Positions 1,523-10,554 are shown, numbered from the stretch's first letter. The stretch: DNA of 10,826 nucleotides from a virus (IMGVR_UViG_3300012983_002979), one strand, 5' to 3'. Numbers and translations are program-made. Notes: generated from the sequence alone by a model not told the origin.

Positions 1523-1546
1523 AAGGCTTTCATTCATGAAAGCCTT
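1523..1546 (-). terminator. Perfect 10-bp-stem hairpin between convergent int and cargo genes; likely terminator for the cargo operon
   Basis: AAGGCTTTCA-ttca-TGAAAGCCTT. On the minus-strand transcript the hairpin is followed by AAAAUUUUU. It overlaps the last codons and stop of cargo gene 2. Confidence 0.45.
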
Positions 1547-2189
1547 CTGTAACAATTATAGGTTCATCTAGCATATATTGTTTTGCAACATATAAAGGAA
1601 AAAAATCTGAGGTATAAAAATTAAAAATATCCCATTGGATATAACACCAAAAAAGAATAACCAAAAGCATCAATGTTATATTTGCCATGGATATATGAAA
1701 ACTCCACAACAAACAAAACAAAAGAGAAAAAATAATCTCAGAGTTAATTATCTTAACTCGAAGATTAGCCTTTTTATCTGATATCTTTTTATCTATCTCC
1801 TTAATAATAAAAAAATCATGGGCATCATTTCGTTTTAACCCCTCATATTTCTCATAAATCCTTAAAATATAGCCATCAAAATCACCAATAAAAACAAGGT
1901 GATTGAAAACTGAAAAGTTTATTTTCTTATGACCATAATTTAAAACCAGAGAAATGATTAGGGCTTGTATTAATTGCAACACTGAAAGCCCTGACAGTAC
2001 TCCCTGTTGAAAATCAAGCACATCCTTAAGGGAAGTTTGATTCATGATATTATATATATCAACATTACCTTTCTGATAAGTCAACATAAAGAAAATTACC
2101 ATGAATAATATCAAAAAACGATGAAGAGGATACTTACAAGTAAGATCCTCAATATATTTCTCTTGGACTTTTTTTGCTAGTTCATCCAT
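1530..2189 (-). CDS. Hypothetical integral membrane protein, ~219 aa, four predicted TM helices (hotspot cargo gene 2)
   Basis: ORF 1530..2222 minus; preferred start is the ATG at 2189-2187 (MDELAKK...), which overlaps the upstream stop as TAATG and has AGGTG 5 nt upstream. Hydrophobic segments FLILFMVIFFMLTY, VLSGLSVLQLIQALIISLVL, IIFSLLFCLLWSF and ITLMLLVILFWCYIQW, with a charged ~60-aa loop between TM2 and TM3. Very AT-rich. Confidence 0.65.
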   Translation of the reverse strand: MDELAKKVQEKYIEDLTCKYPLHRFLILFMVIFFMLTYQKGNVDIYNIMNQTSLKDVLDFQQGVLSGLSVLQLIQALIISLVLNYGHKKINFSVFNHLVFIGDFDGYILRIYEKYEGLKRNDAHDFFIIKEIDKKISDKKANLRVKIINSEIIFSLLFCLLWSFHISMANITLMLLVILFWCYIQWDIFNFYTSDFFPLYVAKQYMLDEPIIVTEGFHE

Positions 2190-3088
2190 TAATACACCTG
2201 TATAAAATATACATCTCCACAATTTGGATCAAAAGCTCCATATTCTATATATGGAGCACCTAAAAACACCATCTCTCTTTCATTCTGAAAATAAGGAAAA
2301 ACCTCTTGAAAATCTTCTTTTGAGGCAAATCTCAGTGTACTTACCGAATTGTTAAAACTGTTTTTCATTTTAGCAGAAAGATATTGCAAATCCATCTCTG
2401 TAACTTTCACTCGATAAATTACAGGGTCACCCAATTTCTTCCTAGTTATAACCCTATGAAAATCATTGGCTTTTGCTCTATTGAACCCAAAAACCTCTGT
2501 GCGATCTGCTGTCAACGATATTTCTAGCGAGCTATCCCCTGAATGATGAGACCTAATAATTGCCAACATTTGATCTATCTCTCTCACAATTGCTCGGTCA
2601 CCATACCGTCGATTAACTGCTGCATCCGGATTTTCCAAAAGTTGCTGATAATCACGAGGTAAAATTTTCTGGCTAGCAATTTGTGCACGTCTAGTCTCTA
2701 CACTTTTACTAATAGTTTCAGCATTTTCAAGACCAGACTGCTGTGCTTCTTTAACTGCATTATTTAGTGCATTTGAAACCCTTTCGACTACTTTTTTTGT
2801 AACATCTTTCTTAGAGAAGAAGTCGATAATATATCCACCTTCTCTAGGGGGCTGTACCAACAGTTCAACATCTTTATAGTAGTCATGATGCATCTTTGCA
2901 TATTTCCAAAGATTACCATGTCTGATGTCAAGATAAGCCCGATCTAAGGCACTTTGCAAATGGCCTAGGCTTTTAGAAAGAGTTCTCAGGGATACTTGGT
3001 GATCAGGTGCAATATCGCCATCAAAATGCAATTCAACAATCGCCACTTCACTTTGCTCCATGTGGAAAAATAAGTCGTTAATGTTCAT
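2189..3088 (-). CDS. Hypothetical protein, 299 aa, no recognisable motif (hotspot cargo gene 1)
   Basis: Long ORF in AT-rich DNA, same orientation as and translationally coupled to the membrane-protein gene. No Walker A, zinc finger or obvious nuclease motif seen by eye. The SD upstream of the ATG at 3088 is weak. Confidence 0.7.
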   Translation of the reverse strand: MNINDLFFHMEQSEVAIVELHFDGDIAPDHQVSLRTLSKSLGHLQSALDRAYLDIRHGNLWKYAKMHHDYYKDVELLVQPPREGGYIIDFFSKKDVTKKVVERVSNALNNAVKEAQQSGLENAETISKSVETRRAQIASQKILPRDYQQLLENPDAAVNRRYGDRAIVREIDQMLAIIRSHHSGDSSLEISLTADRTEVFGFNRAKANDFHRVITRKKLGDPVIYRVKVTEMDLQYLSAKMKNSFNNSVSTLRFASKEDFQEVFPYFQNEREMVFLGAPYIEYGAFDPNCGDVYFIQVY

Positions 3089-3213: not shown

Positions 3214-3314
3214 CGCCCGCTTTGCGGGGCGGTTTTAATGCAGTTGCACTGACACGCTCAGACCGCGCCGGGAATGGTGCGGTCTGCAGAAAATGAGGCA
3301 GGAAAACGCATGCA

Positions 3315-3347
3315 AAGCCATGCACCTTATCGATGCATGGCTTTTTT
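3315..3347 (+). terminator. Rho-independent terminator-like hairpin between cos and the psu stop
   Basis: AAGCCATGCA-ccttatcga-TGCATGGCTT followed by TTTTT on the plus strand. On the minus strand (psu sense) the hairpin is not followed by a U-run, so it would mainly stop rightward transcription. Confidence 0.4.
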
Positions 3348-3377
3348 CAGTAAAAACGGGCGGATTTTCGGGGAATT

Positions 3378-3950
3378 TTACACAGACTGATGTGATGCCA
3401 GTTGCGCACTTTTACGCGAAAAAATCATGTTCTGCGCAGGGGTGAATTTTTCACGGCTGTCATCCACCGAAGCCGCGTCAGGCCTGAATCCGATGGTCGT
3501 TAAAATGTCGCTATCCTGTGCGGAATAATTAATTTTTTCACCCTTCGCAAGCCAGGACAGGAGGGCTTCACGCAGGGCATCTGTGGCACGCTGTATGGCA
3601 CAGTTTCGGGCAATGGCCGTCAGCTCACTGTAGCCCATCAGCTCCGGTGCCAGTGCCGCCGCCAGTGCTGTGCCGTGCTGCTGCATAAAATCATTCAGCC
3701 GGTCGCGGATGCTGATGTGCTGAACGGCTTCATGCGAACGAATATAACGACCGGCGGCCTGATTCACCTGCCATTTTCTGACTTCGATAATATTGCGTAA
3801 TTCGTCCAGGCGACTGACGTTTCTGCCTTCTCCTGACTGAAGCCGCAGATATTCCTGTTCGGCCGCTGCCAGCTCATTTTTGCGTTGCAGCCATGCTGCT
3901 TTGTTATTCTGACAGGTGTCAAAGGCCTGCTGTAAGGCTGTGCTTTCCAT
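3378..3950 (-). CDS. psu: Psu, polarity suppression / capsid decoration protein (190 aa)
   Basis: 190-aa ORF beginning MESTALQQAFDTCQNNKAAW, which I recognise as P4 Psu; length and position (last gene of the psu-delta-sid operon, adjacent to cos) match. Confidence 0.9.
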   Translation of the reverse strand: MESTALQQAFDTCQNNKAAWLQRKNELAAAEQEYLRLQSGEGRNVSRLDELRNIIEVRKWQVNQAAGRYIRSHEAVQHISIRDRLNDFMQQHGTALAAALAPELMGYSELTAIARNCAIQRATDALREALLSWLAKGEKINYSAQDSDILTTIGFRPDAASVDDSREKFTPAQNMIFSRKSAQLASHQSV

Positions 3951-4023
3951 CGTTATCTCTTTCTCATCATGCTGAAGAATAAAAATACGGTGTGCGGCGA
4001 CGGCCGGGGTTAACCGGCAGCCC

Positions 4024-4524
4024 TCATTCCAGACGCAGCGAATATGATTGTGTTTTTAACCGTACTGGCGGCAGTTCCTGTTTTTCATGCAGGCGTTCTG
4101 CCAGTTCGTCCGGTGTGACCGGGCGGACAATGAAGCGGTTGATGGTCTGAAGCGTTTTAAACACCAGACCACAGCCCGGATCCGTGCACACATAAAAACG
4201 TTCGGTGACTTCCTGAGACAGACGCCGCGATGTTCTTGACAGTGCAAGGCCTTTACATCTCCGACAACAATATCCGGTAACAAGCATTCTTTTCGGGCGT
4301 TTCATACTGCCGGAGGCAGAAGTCAGTGAATCGCGGTATCTCTGTTTGCCTGAAATGTATTCCATTCCTGAATCTTTACTGTCAGAGAAAAAGCTTTCAC
4401 TCGCTTCAAATGTCGCAGAGCAATAAATATTCCGGCACTGTGCAATCATTATCTTGGTGCCATCGTCCATGAAATGTGCGCGGCGGGTGTGAGCAACATG
4501 TCCACACGACGGGCAGTAAATCAT
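4024..4524 (-). CDS. delta: Delta, late-gene transcription activator with tandem Ogr-like zinc-finger domains (166 aa)
   Basis: Two Cys-rich Ogr-type halves (CPSCGH...CRNIYC and CCRRCKG...CTDPGC). 166 aa as in P4 Delta. Start overlaps the sid stop as ATGA (4521-4524). Confidence 0.9.
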   Translation of the reverse strand: MIYCPSCGHVAHTRRAHFMDDGTKIMIAQCRNIYCSATFEASESFFSDSKDSGMEYISGKQRYRDSLTSASGSMKRPKRMLVTGYCCRRCKGLALSRTSRRLSQEVTERFYVCTDPGCGLVFKTLQTINRFIVRPVTPDELAERLHEKQELPPVRLKTQSYSLRLE

Positions 4525-5255
4525 GACAGCAGTCCTCTGGCCTTAAGCTCTGCACCCTGCTGGTCTATTTTGTCCTGCCACACCTTGCGCTGTGCCGGTG
4601 TGCCTGCCACCTCATAATCCATGTGCGGGAGTGTTGCCGCTGACAGTCCGGTCAGCCGGAGAACCGGCTCGCCGGTGAGGCTGATTTGCATCTGTTTAAT
4701 TTTCTGTTCCAGCGATGATTTCACCTGCTGCATGACAGCTTTATCGGGTGCGACGTAGCCCTGATGGCCGGTGGTGTTGGCGAGCGGATTTTCCTGTACC
4801 AGGATACTCAGATGCATTGCCCGGACAAGCGCCTCACAGGTTTCATTCAGGGCGTGTTCCAGCTCATGCTCTGCATACAGACTCAGAAGGTGATGATGTG
4901 CCTTCCGGTAGGCGGTGGCCGTGCTGTCACACGCCCCTTTCAGGCGTTCACGTTCGAAATTCAGCACCACGGCCAGATTGTCATATTCCTGTACCAGCTC
5001 CCGGCGTGCCACGCGCTCAATGTGGCGCTGTTTCAGCTCGTCGCTCAGGACACCACCGGCTGCACGAAAGGCCGTGCGCCAGTCGTCAGCGTCGTTTCCG
5101 TCGGCCTGCGCCAGCGCATTTTTTTCCTGCTCTGCCCGTTCAATGGCCGTGACGGTCTCATCCATCAGGCGGGCGTTCTCAAGGTGGGCGGCTCTGGCCT
5201 TTTCCAGTTGTGCCAGTGCGGGTTGCAGATATTCAGGGATGGTGTTGTCAGACAT
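4521..5255 (-). CDS. sid: Sid, external scaffold / capsid size determination protein (244 aa from the ATG at 5255)
   Basis: ORF 4521..5273; the ATG at 5255-5253 has GAGGAG 8 nt upstream and gives 244 aa, the P4 Sid length as I recall it. The track's start at 5273 is a GTG. Coiled-coil-like, Ala/Glu/Leu-rich composition. Confidence 0.85.
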   Translation of the reverse strand: MSDNTIPEYLQPALAQLEKARAAHLENARLMDETVTAIERAEQEKNALAQADGNDADDWRTAFRAAGGVLSDELKQRHIERVARRELVQEYDNLAVVLNFERERLKGACDSTATAYRKAHHHLLSLYAEHELEHALNETCEALVRAMHLSILVQENPLANTTGHQGYVAPDKAVMQQVKSSLEQKIKQMQISLTGEPVLRLTGLSAATLPHMDYEVAGTPAQRKVWQDKIDQQGAELKARGLLS

Positions 5256-5289
5256 TTTCCGGCTCCTCGTCACTTCAGGTTAAGAAAAT

Positions 5290-5345
5290 TGTGACGTACA
5301 CCGGACAACAACACGACGCATTGCAGATGTGCCAGCCCTGACACA
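5290..5345 (-). promoter_or_regulatory. Psid-like late promoter: two TGT-N12-ACA dyads (candidate Delta/Ogr binding sites)
   Basis: TGT(5290-5292)-N12-ACA(5305-5307) and TGT(5328-5330)-N12-ACA(5343-5345), centres ~38 bp apart. Relative to a leftward start near 5281 they would sit near -18 and -55. P2/P4 late promoters are activated through TGT-N12-ACA dyads. Confidence 0.45.
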
Positions 5346-5424
5346 GGAGACTCATCCTCAGACCGGCAAGCCAGGAAAAGGTCGCAGGAAAAACCGGCTT
5401 ACTGTTTGTTTTTTTATATTTTAC

Positions 5425-5528
5425 TGTTCACCTCTGTTCATCATAAGAAAAAAGATAAGTAATACAGTAAGTTAAAGGGTGAACAATCGCAGTAATGACT
5501 GTTCACCGTCTGTTCACCACTGTTCACC
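5425..5528. repeat. Iteron cluster of TGTTCACC octamers; ori-like replication origin
   Basis: TGTTCACC at 5425, 5500, 5511, 5521 (the last three ~10-11 bp apart), a variant TGTTCATC at 5436, and an inverted GGTGAACA at 5478. The same octamer recurs in the crr-like repeats after alpha, ~4.9 kb away. P4 alpha binds TGTTCACC iterons in ori and crr. Confidence 0.5.
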
Positions 5529-5807
5529 CGTTGATGGGCTTTTTGTGCTGTTTACTACTGTTTGTTTTTATTAATTTGCCGGGAATGAATAAGAAAAAAC
5601 GATTTGTATTTCACTATAAAAATTACGAATTGCTTTAAGTGGCTTTAAATGACTTTAAGTGGAGATGAACAAAAAACACACAAGCATTGTAAGGCTGCCG
5701 GAACAAATCCCCCCTGTTGCGTCTGCTGAAAATATTCACAAAATAAAGCGCTACCCGAAGCCGGACGGACTTATCCGGTGCTGTATGGACATTAACGAGG
5801 TAGCCCG

Positions 5808-6074
5808 ATGCAAGCTGTTTTTTCTTCCCCGTCTCCCGCCCCTGTGACGCCACTGATGCCGCTGCCGGACATCACGCAGGAGCGTTTTTTACGTCTGCCG
5901 GAAGTGATGCACCTGTGCGGCCTGTCACGCTCGACCATCTATGAACTCATCCGTAAGGGGGAATTTCCGCCGCAGGTGAGTCTTGGCGGTAAAAATGTGG
6001 CCTGGCTGCACTCTGAAGTCACCGCATGGATGGCCGGCCGCATTGCCGGACGCAAACGGGGGTATGACGCATGA
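5808..6074 (+). CDS. vis: Vis/AlpA-family HTH regulator, excision and late-gene control (88 aa)
   Basis: [50 protein letters not shown] matches the AlpA-type HTH pattern. 88 aa from the ATG at 5808 (GAGG 8 nt upstream); an alternative start at 5856 would give ~72 aa. Confidence 0.75.
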
Positions 6075-6108
6075 TGATGCCCGCTCTGCAAAAAGTCCCT
6101 TTTTCTGG

Positions 6109-6138
6109 CTTGCCTTTTTCCGGCATTTGCGGATATAG
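6109..6138 (+). promoter_or_regulatory. Candidate sigma70 promoter (PLE-like) for the immunity/left operon
   Basis: TTGCCT (6109-6114), 18-bp spacer, TATAGT (6133-6138), ~30 bp upstream of the seqA-like element. Pattern match only. Confidence 0.3.
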
Positions 6139-6329
6139 TTTTTCCGCTGTCGCAAAATCGGCAGCCGGGCGTAGGAACCCGTGTAACTCGAAGGCGACAT
6201 ATGACGCGCCATGCGTCTTTTTTTGTGTCGCAATCAACGCCACAGAGCGCCAGATTATGGTGTGGCGTGTGGTTTGCCGTGCAGGTATGATCCTGTTCGC
6301 AATCGCATGTTATGCCACTGAGTCAATGG

Positions 6330-6400
6330 TAGCTCAGGCGGGGCAGCCTCCGGGCTGGCCGGTATTCTTCGAGGCCGGTATTCCTACCCCCGTCTGGGCT
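6330..6400 (+). ncRNA. cI: CI-like immunity RNA region (seqB-like core); boundaries approximate
   Basis: The central segment 6367-6387 (CTTCGAGGCCGGTATTCCTAC) is complementary to the bipartite GTAGGAA...CTCGAAG(G) motifs at 6171-6194 and 6414-6453, as in P4 seqA/seqB/seqC. RNA ends cannot be set from sequence. Confidence 0.35.
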
Positions 6401-6463
6401 ATCGCCATCGAGCGTAGGAACTCCGGCGATAGCAGTTATTTGCTACTCGAAGGAGACTGCCTT

Positions 6464-6661
6464 ATGGCTACAACCCTTACCCCCTCACACCCTGAATTTG
6501 TCTTTGTGTTTGCGGCTGTCCGTCGCGCAGACCGTCATCCCCGTATCTGCATGCTTCGCACCGTCGCCGGTGATGAACGCAGCGCCCGCCGTTCCCTTGT
6601 CCGTGACTATGTGCTCTCCCTTGCTGCCCGTCTGCCGGTGGTGGAGGTGTCCCGTGCGTAA
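6464..6661 (+). CDS. Small protein (65 aa) in the eta-like position; SD overlapped by the seqC-like element
   Basis: ATG at 6464 preceded by AAGGAG (6450-6455). It is in frame with the 196-aa track ORF, whose upstream part spans the cI region and is unlikely to be coding. Stop overlaps the next gene's start region. Confidence 0.45.
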
Positions 6662-6941
6662 TAAAAAAGCCCCTCAGACCGTCTCAGCGCGTCATGACGC
6701 CCGTGAACACCTCAGCATTGAGGCTTACCATAAGCTCAACCGCGCCAGCGCCGTATCCCAGTTTGTTGGGGGTGATTTGATTCACCGTGAACTCTCCGGC
6801 CTGCATCAGCTCTACATTCCGCATATTTTCAGCTACCTGAATGAAGATATTGATTTTGTGCTGAATGAGCTGAAAGCCAAAGGCCTGTGCCGCGATTTTC
6901 TCGCCCAGCAGAAAGACCGGGGAGACAGGACGCATGTTTGA
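6654..6941 (+). CDS. eps: Epsilon-like protein (helper-prophage derepression), 95 aa from the GTG at 6654
   Basis: Frame of track ORF 6498..6941. GTG at 6654 with GGAGG 6 nt upstream gives 95 aa, the length I recall for P4 epsilon; upstream in-frame ATGs lie inside the preceding small gene. Stop overlaps the orf151 start (ATGTTTGA). Start choice is uncertain. Confidence 0.5.
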
Positions 6942-7389
6942 TTTTCCCCAGCCCGGTGAGATTTACCGTTCTGCCGGTTTTCCCGATGTGGCCGTGGTCG
7001 GCATTCTGGAAGACGGTATTCCGTGGGAAATGCCGTACCGCTGCCCGGAAATTGTCTGGAACCCGTACCGCCGTAAATTCAGTATCCTTGTGCGTATCCT
7101 TGGTGACGGGCGCACCACAGACATCCCGCTGGGGCGTTTTCTGCGGGAATTTACCTGTGACTGTCCTGACCTGTTCAGACGCAGCCCCGTAAACCGGCAT
7201 GCGGTACTGAAAGAAATGGCCGGAGACCCGGAATTACAGAAATGGCGGGAGAAATATCTGGATATTTACCCGCAGGACACTGTTCCGGTCAGCCGGGCGG
7301 CACCGGTGGCGCGGGAATGGCGGGAAATCCCCCGCACGGAGCCTGACCCGGAAATCACACCGGATAACAGTTACCGCAATTATCTGTAA
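6934..7389 (+). CDS. Conserved P4-family protein, orf151-like (151 aa)
   Basis: 151-aa ORF with GGAGACAGGA upstream, coupled to the preceding gene. Length and position between epsilon and alpha match P4 orf151. Confidence 0.8.
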   Translation: MFDFPQPGEIYRSAGFPDVAVVGILEDGIPWEMPYRCPEIVWNPYRRKFSILVRILGDGRTTDIPLGRFLREFTCDCPDLFRRSPVNRHAVLKEMAGDPELQKWREKYLDIYPQDTVPVSRAAPVAREWREIPRTEPDPEITPDNSYRNYL

Positions 7390-7524
7390 TTAAAAAACGA
7401 CACCCGAAAAATTAAATGTGCGTATTCGCGCAGGGATACGCACGTCTTCAGGAGACGCAGATATGCCTTATCAGTTAATGCAACCGGCACGGAATGCAGT
7501 CATCTGTCACAGGGAGGAAAGCAA

Positions 7525-7845
7525 ATGAAAACACCCTTACCGCCCGTCTTACGCGCAGCCCTTTACCGTCGCGCTGTCGCCTGTGCCTGGCTGACCGTGT
7601 GCGAACGTCAGCACCGCTACCCGCATCTCACCCTTGAATCACTGGAGGCGGCCATCGCCGCTGAGCTGGAAGGCTTTTATCTGCGCCAGCACGGTGAGGA
7701 AAAAGGGCGTCAGATAGCCTGTGCCCTGCTGGAAGATTTAATGGAATCCGGCCCCCTGAAGGCCGCGCCGTCGCTGTCCTTTCTCGGGCTGGTTGTGATG
7801 GATGAACTCTGTGCCCGTCACATAAAAGCGCCGGTACTGCACTGA
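7525..7845 (+). CDS. Conserved P4-family hypothetical protein, orf106-like (106 aa)
   Basis: 106-aa ORF with GGGAGG upstream, immediately before alpha. Confidence 0.75.
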
Positions 7846-7859
7846 AGGAGAACAACACC

Positions 7860-10193
7860 ATGAAAATGAACGTAACCGCCACCGTCAGCCATGCGCTCGG
7901 CCACTGGCCGCGTATTCTCCCGGCGCTGGGGATTCAGGTGCTGAAAAACCGTCATCAGCCCTGTCCGGTCTGTGGCGGGAGTGACCGCTTCCGTTTTGAT
8001 GACAGGGAGGGGCGCGGCACCTGGTACTGCAATCAGTGTGGTGCCGGTGACGGCCTGAAACTGGTTGAAAAGGTGTTTGGTGTTTCCCCGTCCGACGCGG
8101 CCGCAAAGGTGGCTGCCGTGACCGGCAGCCTGCCACCGGCTGACCCGGCAGTGACGACCGCCGCCGTTGCTGAAACAGACGCTGCCCGGAAGAGCGCCGC
8201 CGCACTGGCACAAACCCTGATGGCGAAAACCCGTCCCGGAACCGGTAACGCCTACCTGACCCGCAAGGGCTTTCCCGGCCGGGAATGCCGGATGCTGACC
8301 GGCACACTCAGAGCCGGTGGCGTGAGCTGGCGTGCCGGTGACCTTGTGGTGCCACTGTATGACGACAGCGGCGAACTGGTTAACCTTCAGTTAATCAGTG
8401 CTGACGGCCGTAAGCGCACCCTGAAAGGCGGACAGGTCAGGGGCACCTGTCACACCCTTGAAGGACAGAATCAGGCCGGAAAACGTCTGTGGATAGCGGA
8501 GGGATACGCGACCGCACTTACCGTACATCACCTGACCGGTGAAACGGTGATGGTGGCGCTTTCTTCCGTGAACCTCCTTTCTCTGGCCAGCCTTGCCCGG
8601 CAGAAGCATCCGGCCTGTCAGATTGTCCTTGCCGCAGACCGTGACCTCAGCGGTGACGGCCAGAAAAAAGCCGCCGCAGCCGCAGATGCGTGTGAAGGTG
8701 TTGTTGCCCTGCCGCCGGTCTTCGGTGACTGGAATGATGCCTTCACGCAGTACGGCGGGGAGGTCACCCGTAAGGCCATTTACGATGCCATCCGGCCACC
8801 GGCTGAAAGCCCGTTCGACACCATGAGCGAAGCAGAGTTTTCCGCCATGAGTACCAGCGAAAAGGCCATGCGTATCTATGAGCATTACGGCGAGGCGCTC
8901 GCGGTCGATGCCAACGGCCAGCTTCTGTCCCGCTATGAAAATGGTGTCTGGAAGGTGCTGCCGCCACAGGACTTTGCCCGGGATGTGGCCGGGCTGTTTC
9001 AGCGTCTGCGCGCGCCGTTCTCCTCCGGGAAGGTGGCCTCCGTGGTGGACACCCTGAAGCTGATTATTCCGCAGCAGGAAGCCCCCTCCCGCCGCCTGAT
9101 TGGCTTTCGTAACGGTGTGCTCGACACGCAGAACGGCACGTTCCACCCGCACAGTCCGTCACACTGGATGCGCACCCTGTGCGATGTGGATTTCACCCCG
9201 CCGGTGGACGGTGAAACGCTGGAAACCCACGCCCCCGCGTTCTGGCGCTGGCTTGACCGTGCCGCCGGTGGCCGTGCGGAAAAACGCGACGTGATTCTGG
9301 CCGCACTGTTTATGGTGCTGGCAAACCGCTACGACTGGCAGCTCTTTCTGGAGGTGACCGGTCCCGGCGGCAGCGGCAAAAGTATCATGGCCGAAATAGC
9401 CACCCTGCTGGCCGGGGAGGATAACGCCACGTCGGCCACCATCGAGACGCTGGAATCCCCGCGTGAACGTGCCGCGTTAACTGGCTTCTCACTGATACGC
9501 CTGCCGGACCAGGAAAAATGGAGCGGCGACGGTGCCGGACTCAAGGCCATCACCGGCGGCGATGCGGTGTCCGTGGACCCGAAATACCGGGATGCGTACT
9601 CCACGCATATCCCGGCGGTGATTCTGGCCGTGAACAATAACCCGATGCGCTTCACCGACCGCAGCGGCGGCGTGTCACGCCGGCGGGTGATTATTCACTT
9701 CCCGGAACAGATAGCCCCGCAGGAGCGCGACCCGCAGCTTAAGGACAAAATCACCCGCGAGCTGGCGGTCATCGTGCGTCACCTGATGCAGAAATTCAGC
9801 GACCCGATGCTCGCCCGGTCACTGCTTCAGTCCCAGCAGAACTCAGACGAGGCACTGAACATCAAACGGGATGCCGACCCGACGTTTGATTTTATCGGCT
9901 ATCTGGAAACCCTGCCGCAGACCAGCGGCATGTATATGGGGAACGCCAGTATCATCCCGCGTAATTACCGTAAATACCTCTATCACGCCTATCTGGCCTA
10001 CATGGAGGCAAACGGCTACCGGAATGTACTCAGTCTGAAAATGTTCGGGCTGGGGCTGCCGGTGATGCTGAAGGAATACGGACTGAATTACGAGAAGCGC
10101 CATACCAAACAGGGGATACAGACCAACCTGACGCTGAAAGAGGAAAGCTACGGCGACTGGCTGCCAAAATGTGACGACCCTGCAACAACCTGA
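7860..10193 (+). CDS. alpha: Alpha: bifunctional primase-helicase replication protein (777 aa)
   Basis: N-terminal zinc-binding primase motif (CPVCGGSDRFRFDD...WYCNQCG), TOPRIM-like region (LWIAEGYATALT...LAADRD), Walker A (VTGPGGSGKS) in a D5-like helicase domain. 777 aa as in P4 alpha. Confidence 0.95.
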   Translation: MKMNVTATVSHALGHWPRILPALGIQVLKNRHQPCPVCGGSDRFRFDDREGRGTWYCNQCGAGDGLKLVEKVFGVSPSDAAAKVAAVTGSLPPADPAVTTAAVAETDAARKSAAALAQTLMAKTRPGTGNAYLTRKGFPGRECRMLTGTLRAGGVSWRAGDLVVPLYDDSGELVNLQLISADGRKRTLKGGQVRGTCHTLEGQNQAGKRLWIAEGYATALTVHHLTGETVMVALSSVNLLSLASLARQKHPACQIVLAADRDLSGDGQKKAAAAADACEGVVALPPVFGDWNDAFTQYGGEVTRKAIYDAIRPPAESPFDTMSEAEFSAMSTSEKAMRIYEHYGEALAVDANGQLLSRYENGVWKVLPPQDFARDVAGLFQRLRAPFSSGKVASVVDTLKLIIPQQEAPSRRLIGFRNGVLDTQNGTFHPHSPSHWMRTLCDVDFTPPVDGETLETHAPAFWRWLDRAAGGRAEKRDVILAALFMVLANRYDWQLFLEVTGPGGSGKSIMAEIATLLAGEDNATSATIETLESPRERAALTGFSLIRLPDQEKWSGDGAGLKAITGGDAVSVDPKYRDAYSTHIPAVILAVNNNPMRFTDRSGGVSRRRVIIHFPEQIAPQERDPQLKDKITRELAVIVRHLMQKFSDPMLARSLLQSQQNSDEALNIKRDADPTFDFIGYLETLPQTSGMYMGNASIIPRNYRKYLYHAYLAYMEANGYRNVLSLKMFGLGLPVMLKEYGLNYEKRHTKQGIQTNLTLKEESYGDWLPKCDDPATT

Positions 10194-10209
10194 CCATCAT
10201 GACTCATCT

Positions 10210-10234
10210 GACCGGCATCTGCCGGTCTTTTTTT
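10210..10234 (+). terminator. Rho-independent terminator after alpha
   Basis: GACCGGCA-tc-TGCCGGTC followed by TTTTTTT, 17 nt after the alpha stop. Confidence 0.6.
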
Positions 10235-10252
10235 ATCCCTGAATTCCCCGAA

Positions 10253-10554
10253 GGTGAACAATCCACTGTTCACCCTTCACCGTATATTCACCCGTTATCA
10301 CACTGAAATTAAAAGAGAAAAACGAAAGGTGAACAGTGTGAACAATCAAATCAAAAAAAACTTTTTTCTCCCTGTGTGATTTTCAGTACGGGGGATTAAT
10401 CACCGGTATGAGTCACACCGGCAGAATGCCGGAGGTGAAGAATCGAATGTTCACCCTTCACCCATTATTCACCACCTATCCAACTGAAATAAAAGGAGAA
10501 AACAGAAAGGTGAACAGTGTGAACAGTTCTTTCGAAAAAAAATTTTTTTCCTGT
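10253..10554. repeat. crr-like cis replication region: two ~120-bp direct repeats (10253-10375 and 10433-10554) separated by ~57 bp, each with TGTTCACC/GGTGAACA iterons
   Basis: The two units align along their length (GGTGAACAATCCACTGTTCACCCTTCACC...GAAAGGTGAACAGTGTGAACA...CCTGT versus GGTGAAGAATCGAATGTTCACCCTTCACC...GAAAGGTGAACAGTGTGAACA...CCTGT). P4 crr is two 120-bp direct repeats ~60 bp apart carrying the alpha-binding octamer. Confidence 0.6.

Follow-up and report, generated by a model that had tools for sequence, protein, structure and literature searches.

The repeat cluster beside sid in a P4-like satellite prophage at ssrA of Escherichia coli is very probably the known P4 origin ori1

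A cluster of short repeats was analyzed in a window of 10,826 nt, by which we mean the whole stretch of DNA under study. Judged from its sequence, the cluster is very probably ori1 of a P4-like satellite prophage that is integrated beside ssrA in E. coli. It is a near-exact copy of the well-studied replication origin of P4, and the finding is therefore real and at the same time already known: the origin of P4 has been re-identified in a close relative. The first-pass annotation of this DNA had proposed a P4-type ori that shares octamers with crr, and this proposal was borne out by an identity of 97.8% to the P4 ori and by the presence of alpha, cnr and crr in nearly identical form. For the window as such the result matters little, and it is best read as a positive control for that annotation and not as a discovery. 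What goes beyond the textbook is a rare allele of iteron 2, the family-wide invariance of a 35-bp spacer inside the origin, and a tentative division of the iterons into C and T classes.

Positions 3214-10548 of the window, from psu to crr, were collinear with P4 4291-11624 at 97.8% identity. When the segment 5250-5700 was searched by BLAST against phage records, it matched phage P4 (X51522/NC_001609), likewise at 97.8%; the 450 bp aligned to X51522 9139-9588, inside the annotated rep_origin at 9086-9809, a region that the P4 record describes as the 'origin of DNA replication'. Compared with the P4 ori region, the segment 5250-5720 differed by one change in iteron 2 and by nine further substitutions. 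The interval 5401-5580, to which the origin had first been assigned, lies in an intergenic region of 534 bp with the leftward sid on one side and a rightward gene of 88 codons on the other. The features of this region, and of the adjoining immunity region, are as follows.

5255 (ATG), leftward: sid homologue, 244 codons
5328-5345, minus strand: TGT-N12-ACA dyad upstream of sid, left border of the ori region
5401-5422: left AT-rich block, ACTGTTTGTTTTTTTATATTTT, next to iteron 1 on its upstream side
5425-5432, plus strand: iteron 1, TGTTCACC, P4 'ori type 1 repeat' 9406-9413
5435-5442, plus strand: iteron 2, variant TGTTCATC (in P4 TGTTCACC), P4 'ori type 1 repeat' 9396-9403
5443-5477: AT-rich spacer of 35 bp between iterons 1-2 and 3-6, 80% AT
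5478-5485, minus strand: iteron 3, inverted, GGTGAACA on the plus strand, P4 'ori type 1 repeat' 9353-9360
5500-5528, plus strand: iterons 4, 5 and 6, TGTTCACC at 5500, 5511 and 5521, in tandem at distances of 11 and 10 bp
5557-5578: right AT-rich block, ACTGTTTGTTTTTATTAATTTG, starting with ACTGTTTG
5632-5661, plus strand: three tandem 10-bp 'ori type 2 repeats', GCTTTAAGTG, GCTTTAAATG and ACTTTAAGTG, corresponding to the three copies of the P4 'ori type 2 repeat' at 9176-9205
5688-5705, plus strand: TGT-N12-ACA dyad upstream of orf88/vis, right border of the ori region
5808-6074, rightward: orf88, 88 codons, encoding an AlpA-family DNA-binding protein
6110-6139: PLE-like promoter, TTGCCT-18-TATAGT
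6146-6223: isrK-family RNA (Rfam), with a terminator-like hairpin at 6203-6217
6322-6409: C4 RNA (cI antisense RNA; Rfam)

Exact copies of the octamer TGTTCACC were located at 5425 (+), 5478-5485 (-), 5500 (+), 5511 (+) and 5521 (+), and TGTTCATC at 5435-5442 (+) is a copy with one mismatch. The earlier count of six octamers, one of them inverted and one a variant, was in agreement with these positions within 5425-5528. All six coincide base for base with the six 'ori type 1 repeats' of P4, iterons 4, 5 and 6 falling on P4 9331-9338, 9320-9327 and 9310-9317, respectively. The five direct iterons have offsets of 0, 10, 75, 86 and 96 bp and lie within about 2 bp of one helical face of the DNA. 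They are grouped as a pair (iterons 1-2) and, together with the inverted copy, as a set of four (inverted iteron 3 and tandem iterons 4-6) on either side of the spacer. The arrangement known from P4 ori1, with six type I iterons, five direct and one inverted, in near helical phasing, is thereby reproduced in the window. Iterons 3 and 4 together make an imperfect palindrome; a terminator-like hairpin called at 5478-5507 is this same palindrome, has no T-run following it, and was rejected as a terminator.

The whole window holds ten exact copies of TGTTCACC against 0.30 expected, and none of 200 dinucleotide-preserving shuffles reached ten. Five of these copies belong to the cluster at 5425-5528 and five to the crr region at 10253-10516, so that the sharing of octamers between ori and the crr-like repeats, as it had been described, is correct. 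That the octamers came together by chance in AT-rich intergenic DNA could be argued from the shortness of the motif alone; the excess over the shuffled sequences, and the conservation of the octamer positions in 52 elements from many genera, exclude this reading. These elements were drawn from a sample of alpha-encoding loci, with one genome per species, from which 52 distinct origin regions were aligned. Identity of the alpha proteins ranged from 57% to 100%, and the genera represented were Escherichia, Enterobacter, Citrobacter, Klebsiella, Kluyvera, Pantoea, Erwinia, Pectobacterium, Serratia, Rahnella, Rosenbergiella and others. The 52 origins keep the same order of elements: a T-rich left flank, two iterons 10 bp apart, the spacer, the inverted iteron and three tandem iterons. 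At the position of iteron 1 most relatives have TATTCACY, iteron 3 is conserved at about 90% or more, and iterons 4, 5 and 6 are strongly conserved. Alpha proteins with 97-99% identity to the one encoded in the window were also encountered on four short contigs (L012, L013, L014 and L045) binned in Ferruginibacter, Clostridiales, Ruminococcus and 'bacterium' MAGs, and these contigs are almost certainly mis-binned fragments of E. coli P4-like elements.

Judged from conservation and calculated duplex stability, opening most likely takes place in the internal spacer at 5443-5477, which is kept in both length and sequence and is of low stability. Its length was 35 bp in 49 of the 52 origins and 34 bp in the other 3, with a median AT fraction of 0.83, and few stretches of the ori region are as well conserved in this set as its sequence, AAAAAGATAAGTAATACAGTAAGTTAAAG. 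In a nearest-neighbor stability profile of the P4-homologous part, the lowest stability over 20 bp was reached at 5444-5463, in the spacer, followed by 5405-5424, in the left block. An AT-rich region of ~35 bp, which we take to be a defining feature of P4 ori1, is present inside the iteron cluster of the window at 5443-5477. Inspection of the spacer by eye for an IHF-type site gave no convincing match to WATCAANNNNTTR.

The first-pass annotation had looked for the unwinding elements elsewhere, in two similar AT-rich blocks on either side of the iterons. Both blocks do exist, the first exactly at 5401-5422 as described, but the second is displaced by one base and lies at 5557-5578, not 5556-5577. 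Their likeness is that of a genuine repeat: 19 of 22 positions (86%) match in the register 5400-5421 versus 5556-5577, and a pair of 22-mers matching at 19 of 22 positions arose in none of 500 dinucleotide-preserving shuffles of the region, where the maximum was 18. In duplex stability the left block is roughly on a par with the spacer and near the lower extreme, and a high AT content is kept on both flanks throughout the family, with medians over the 52 origins of 0.79 on the left and of 0.80 on the right at +30 to +60 past iteron 6. These observations would suit DNA unwinding elements at 5401-5422 and 5557-5578. The right block, however, is less extreme than the spacer in the stability profile, and it is the internal spacer that combines a fixed length with a conserved sequence. 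The T-run of the left block, TTTGTTTTTTTA, was invariant in six E. coli/P4 copies and 60-90% conserved across the 52 origins. The 5' half of the right block (ACTGTTTGTTTTT) was common to less than 10% of the origins, the relatives having TTAGAC..TTTTTA.CGATTAAAAA at this place, which is still AT-rich. This half belongs to the P4/E. coli lineage only, and with it the close match between the two blocks; AT-rich flanks are thus a trait of the family, and the resemblance between the blocks is a peculiarity of one lineage. Moreover, the minimal ori1 defined by Tocchetti et al. in 1999 reportedly consists of 123 bp with the six iterons and the 35-bp AT-rich region, and a fragment of this size cannot hold both flanking blocks, which together span 178 bp. 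An unwinding function of the paired blocks is for these reasons unlikely and not the best reading of the region. Taken singly, the left block is a possible accessory opening element, and the right block is unlikely to be an opening element. The length-invariant spacer of 35 bp is hence singled out as the melting-site candidate in preference to the flanking blocks.

In iteron 2 a C has been replaced by T at a core position where 51 of 51 other aligned origins have C. In IMG/VR the 24-mer containing the variant was found in 0 contigs, compared with 75 contigs for the canonical 24-mer. The variant was also present in E. coli P15-385 (at leuX) and E. coli E21845/O/A (at ssrA), in two different P4-like elements; the ori region of P15-385 is 100% identical to that of the window, and the element there is a different P4-like one, situated at leuX. 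The C-to-T change could weaken the binding of alpha. Carried further, this would make the cluster a weakened or dead homologue of the P4 ori in which TGTTCACC has become TGTTCATC, and after induction the element would either need the alternative replicon II of P4 (ori2 in alpha together with crr) or fail to replicate. The universal C in the other origins and the absence of the variant context from IMG/VR agree with such a loss. It would also fit the removal of single iterons that, in the 1999 study of Tocchetti et al., is said to have inactivated oriI. On the other hand, no fewer than two distinct P4-like elements have the allele, P15-385 at leuX and E21845/O/A at ssrA, with alpha, cnr and crr intact in both, and a single base change is milder than a deletion. 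An even larger alteration is seen in 02E060 (L006), where a 10-bp deletion, aligned to 5423-5432, removes one of the two left iterons and leaves five; this element persists in nature, and some variation in iteron number is thus naturally maintained. We consider a crippled origin improbable and keep to the assignment of the cluster as ori1. Being a rare change in the core of iteron 2, the allele provides a natural test of the extent to which an origin depends on having all six iterons intact.

The annotated origin of P4 also includes the type 2 repeats, which lie outside 5401-5580. Their sequence varies among P4-like elements and the tandem layout of 10 bp persists, as illustrated by the type 2-like repeats of RM9387 (CCTTCAGAAC/CCTTTGAGAC/CCTTCCAGTC) and NCTC9041 (TTGCCAACAA/TTACCAAAAG/ATTGCCAACG). 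The neighboring AlpA/Vis-like protein may be the one that binds these repeats. The orf88 protein of 02E060 (WP_001149160.1) is identical to that of elements with P4-type repeats, and yet the type 2 repeats of 02E060 differ, which argues against a simple one-to-one co-evolution of these repeats with the AlpA/Vis-like protein.

The two TGT-N12-ACA dyads mark the borders of the ori region. In the left dyad, 5328-5345, TGT and ACA are conserved in A2, and we take the pattern to be the P2/P4 late-promoter activator site assigned to Psid. The right dyad, 5688-5705, presumably represents the PLL side; about 395 nt separate it from the PLE-like promoter farther downstream at 6110-6139, and the sequence downstream of the dyad, 5715-5750, is highly conserved. 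The slightly longer stretch 5715-5775 (CTGTTGC...AAAATATTCACAAAATAAAGCGCTACCCGAAGCCGGACGGAC) was almost invariant across the 52 P4-like elements, exceeding most of the origin in conservation, and coincides with the expected place of the PLL start and the vis leader. A scan for sigma-70 promoters over 5200-6450 found none inside the iteron cluster, the sole match being the PLE-like site at 6110-6139. With its location between two divergent genes and two activator-type dyads, and with an AlpA-family DNA-binding protein as the product of orf88, the cluster could conceivably be a set of operators in a divergent late-promoter control region for sid and orf88/vis, acting in transcription and not in replication. 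This is very improbable: the dyads are separate from the octamers and lie outside the cluster, and the octamers recur in a promoter-less repeat downstream of alpha, co-vary with the winged-helix domain of alpha and are annotated as ori repeats in the P4 record. Binding of alpha at the octamers may nevertheless have a secondary effect on transcription.

P4 replicates bidirectionally by the theta mode from ori, with crr needed in cis, and does so independently of the host proteins DnaA, DnaB, DnaC and DnaG; Cnr holds this replication in check by acting on the DNA binding of alpha. The alpha protein, which is essential for P4 replication (PMC8628076), unites a DnaG-type primase, an SF3 helicase and a winged-helix domain (PMC2777425; PMC4889955), and binds the origin repeats through this C-terminal domain before unwinding and priming (PMC4234260). 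The window contains the corresponding set of genes and sites.

7525-7845, plus strand: cnr (orf106), copy-number regulator, Pfam DUF5375, identical to P4 ORF106 at 106 of 106 residues
7860-10193, plus strand: alpha gene, with zinc ribbon, Toprim primase, D5_N / SF3 helicase and C-terminal winged-helix domains (Pfam)
10248-10367, plus strand: crr direct repeat 1, 120 bp, with iterons at 10253 (-), 10267 (+) and 10328 (-) and degenerate TTCAC sites
10429-10548, plus strand: crr direct repeat 2, 120 bp, with iterons at 10434 (-, TCTTCACC), 10448 (+) and 10509 (-)

The encoded alpha (777 aa) is identical to P4 alpha at 770 of 776 positions, and over residues 671-770 it shows 100% identity to PDB 1KA8, the crystallized origin-binding winged-helix domain of P4. 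Repeat 1 aligns to the 'direct repeat 1 cis replication region (crr)' of P4, repeat 2 is 81% identical to repeat 1, and the iterons of both repeats are identical to the crr iterons of P4. A cognate alpha and cnr, and a distant crr downstream of alpha, accordingly accompany the cluster as they do P4 ori1. The distance between ori and crr had been likened to that of P4, and the comparison was confirmed by a spacing of about 4.8-4.9 kb from 5425-5528 to 10253-10516; the layout is the same because the entire stretch is collinear with P4. In several other elements (L010, L019, L038, L047 and L066) the crr cluster was found 0.7-3.1 kb downstream of alpha and not directly after it. Two genes of the sce7726 and sce7725 families lie between alpha and crr in one of these, NCTC9041 (L010 10932-12712), which suggests a second insertion spot for cargo at this place.

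The eighth base of the iteron varies in concert at ori and crr. E. coli E70 (L009) has mostly TGTTCACT among its ori iterons and likewise among its crr iterons, and its alpha winged-helix domain is 73% identical to that of the alpha encoded in the window. The same TGTTCACT class, in ori as well as in crr, was seen in L009 (E70), L022, L047, L055, L061, L088, L091 and others; the element of the window belongs to the P4 (C) class. In 28 elements the sites were numerous enough for a comparison, and the share of iterons with T as the eighth base correlated between ori and crr with a Spearman coefficient of 0.87, equaled in 0 of 10000 permutations and uncorrected for shared ancestry. In the winged-helix domain, residues 718, 727, 731, 750 and 765 split perfectly with the iteron class in 14 versus 12 elements, and residue 689 partly so, the class differences being N718 to H/R, K727 to T, L731 to K/R, K750 to N and G765 to A. 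The split extends to distant members of the family, such as Rosenbergiella versus Serratia, with about 57-59% alpha identity. This covariation of ori, crr and the winged-helix domain, uncorrected for shared ancestry throughout, is the pattern expected if one protein reads both sites; we take it as indirect support for binding of alpha to the iterons and for alpha-dependent replication from ori with crr, and not as proof. It also raises the tentative and rather doubtful possibility that P4-like satellites fall into at least two alpha-iteron specificity classes, TGTTCACC versus TGTTCACT; shared ancestry of the sampled elements could give the same class pattern without any change in specificity. 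If these residues do read the eighth base, satellites of different classes could replicate side by side in one cell without interference, and the covariation of ori, crr and alpha in Enterobacterales could guide the design of orthogonal P4-based delivery vectors.

The element as a whole is a P4-like satellite prophage at ssrA with the P4 replication module almost unchanged. Integration at the 3' end of ssrA is evident from positions 249-374 of the tmRNA model, which were matched at 1-120 of the window. The left 3.2 kb is not P4 and consists of the ssrA end, a tyrosine integrase at 304-1497 without a P4 match, and two AT-rich ORFs. The same locus occurs between ssrA and ypjA in E. coli E21845/O/A and in about two dozen other complete genomes; P4 itself and most of the relatives examined occupy a tRNA-Leu site. 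The order of genes is that of P4-like elements: int, cargo, psu, delta, sid, ori, vis/alpA, cI RNA, epsilon, orf151, cnr, alpha and crr. Besides the alpha domains, the Pfam families AlpA, Ash, Derepression and DUF5375 were recognized, and a P4-like gene set is also what RefSeq annotates at the identical E. coli locus. The P4 immunity region, 6110-6409, is intact. The cargo consists of two overlapping ORFs on the minus strand, of 219 aa (1530-2189) and 299 aa (2189-3088), with 27-31% GC, corresponding to the hypothetical proteins WP_024238669 and WP_024238668 of E. coli E21845/O/A. Searches of 1530-3088 with Pfam and PADLOC gave no match. These ORFs take the place of P4 gop/beta/cII between int and psu, a known defense hotspot of P4, and are candidates for uncharacterized defense cargo.

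A course of replication can be proposed for this element. In the repressed prophage alpha would not be made and the origin would be silent. Once the left operon of the satellite is expressed, alpha would be produced, and its winged-helix domain would, as described in the P4 literature, bind the TGTTCACC iterons both at ori and at crr some ~4.8 kb away, crr, just downstream of alpha, being required in cis. Alpha assembled on the helically phased iteron arrays, two on one side and four on the other, would then open the duplex, and the comparative data would place this opening in the 35-bp AT-rich spacer bracketed by the two groups of iterons. The helicase of alpha would unwind and its primase would prime, so that host DNA polymerase III could replicate the element bidirectionally in the theta mode, with no need for the initiator, the replicative helicase or the primase of the host. 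Cnr would modulate alpha binding and so keep the copy number down.

Among known systems, the closest is replicon I of P4, with the same six iterons in the same positions and orientations, the 35-bp spacer, the type 2 repeats and a crr with two 120-bp repeats; alpha is 99% identical, its origin-binding domain 100% and Cnr 100%. The two elements differ in that P4 resides at leuX and carries gop/beta/cII, whereas the element described here resides at ssrA and has another integrase and two unknown cargo genes. Iteron plasmids such as pSC101, P1 oriR and R6K resemble P4 in having helically phased direct repeats that bind their own initiator beside an AT-rich segment, and in these plasmids distant sets of iterons, paired through the initiator, have an influence on initiation or copy number. 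The Rep proteins of pSC101, P1 oriR and R6K, however, only recruit host DnaA, DnaB and DnaG, while P4 alpha is itself helicase and primase, and the distant iteron set of P4 (crr) is needed for initiation and does not just inhibit. Gram-negative PICIs, for example EcCICFT073 with its pri-rep-ori module, are comparable in that two sets of iterons flank an AT-rich proposed melting site beside a satellite primase/replicase (PMC6092414). Their initiators and iteron sequences are unrelated to those of P4, and no second cis site like crr is described for them; the likeness is one of layout only. As in alpha, a single polypeptide recognizes the origin repeats and then acts as the replicative helicase in SV40 large T antigen, papillomavirus E1 and ORF904 of pRN1 (PMC4889955; PMC2777425). 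These SF3 initiators differ from alpha by having other origin-binding folds or AEP-type primases, and the pRN1 origin, unlike the P4 ori, is a stem-loop without iterons (PMC4234260).
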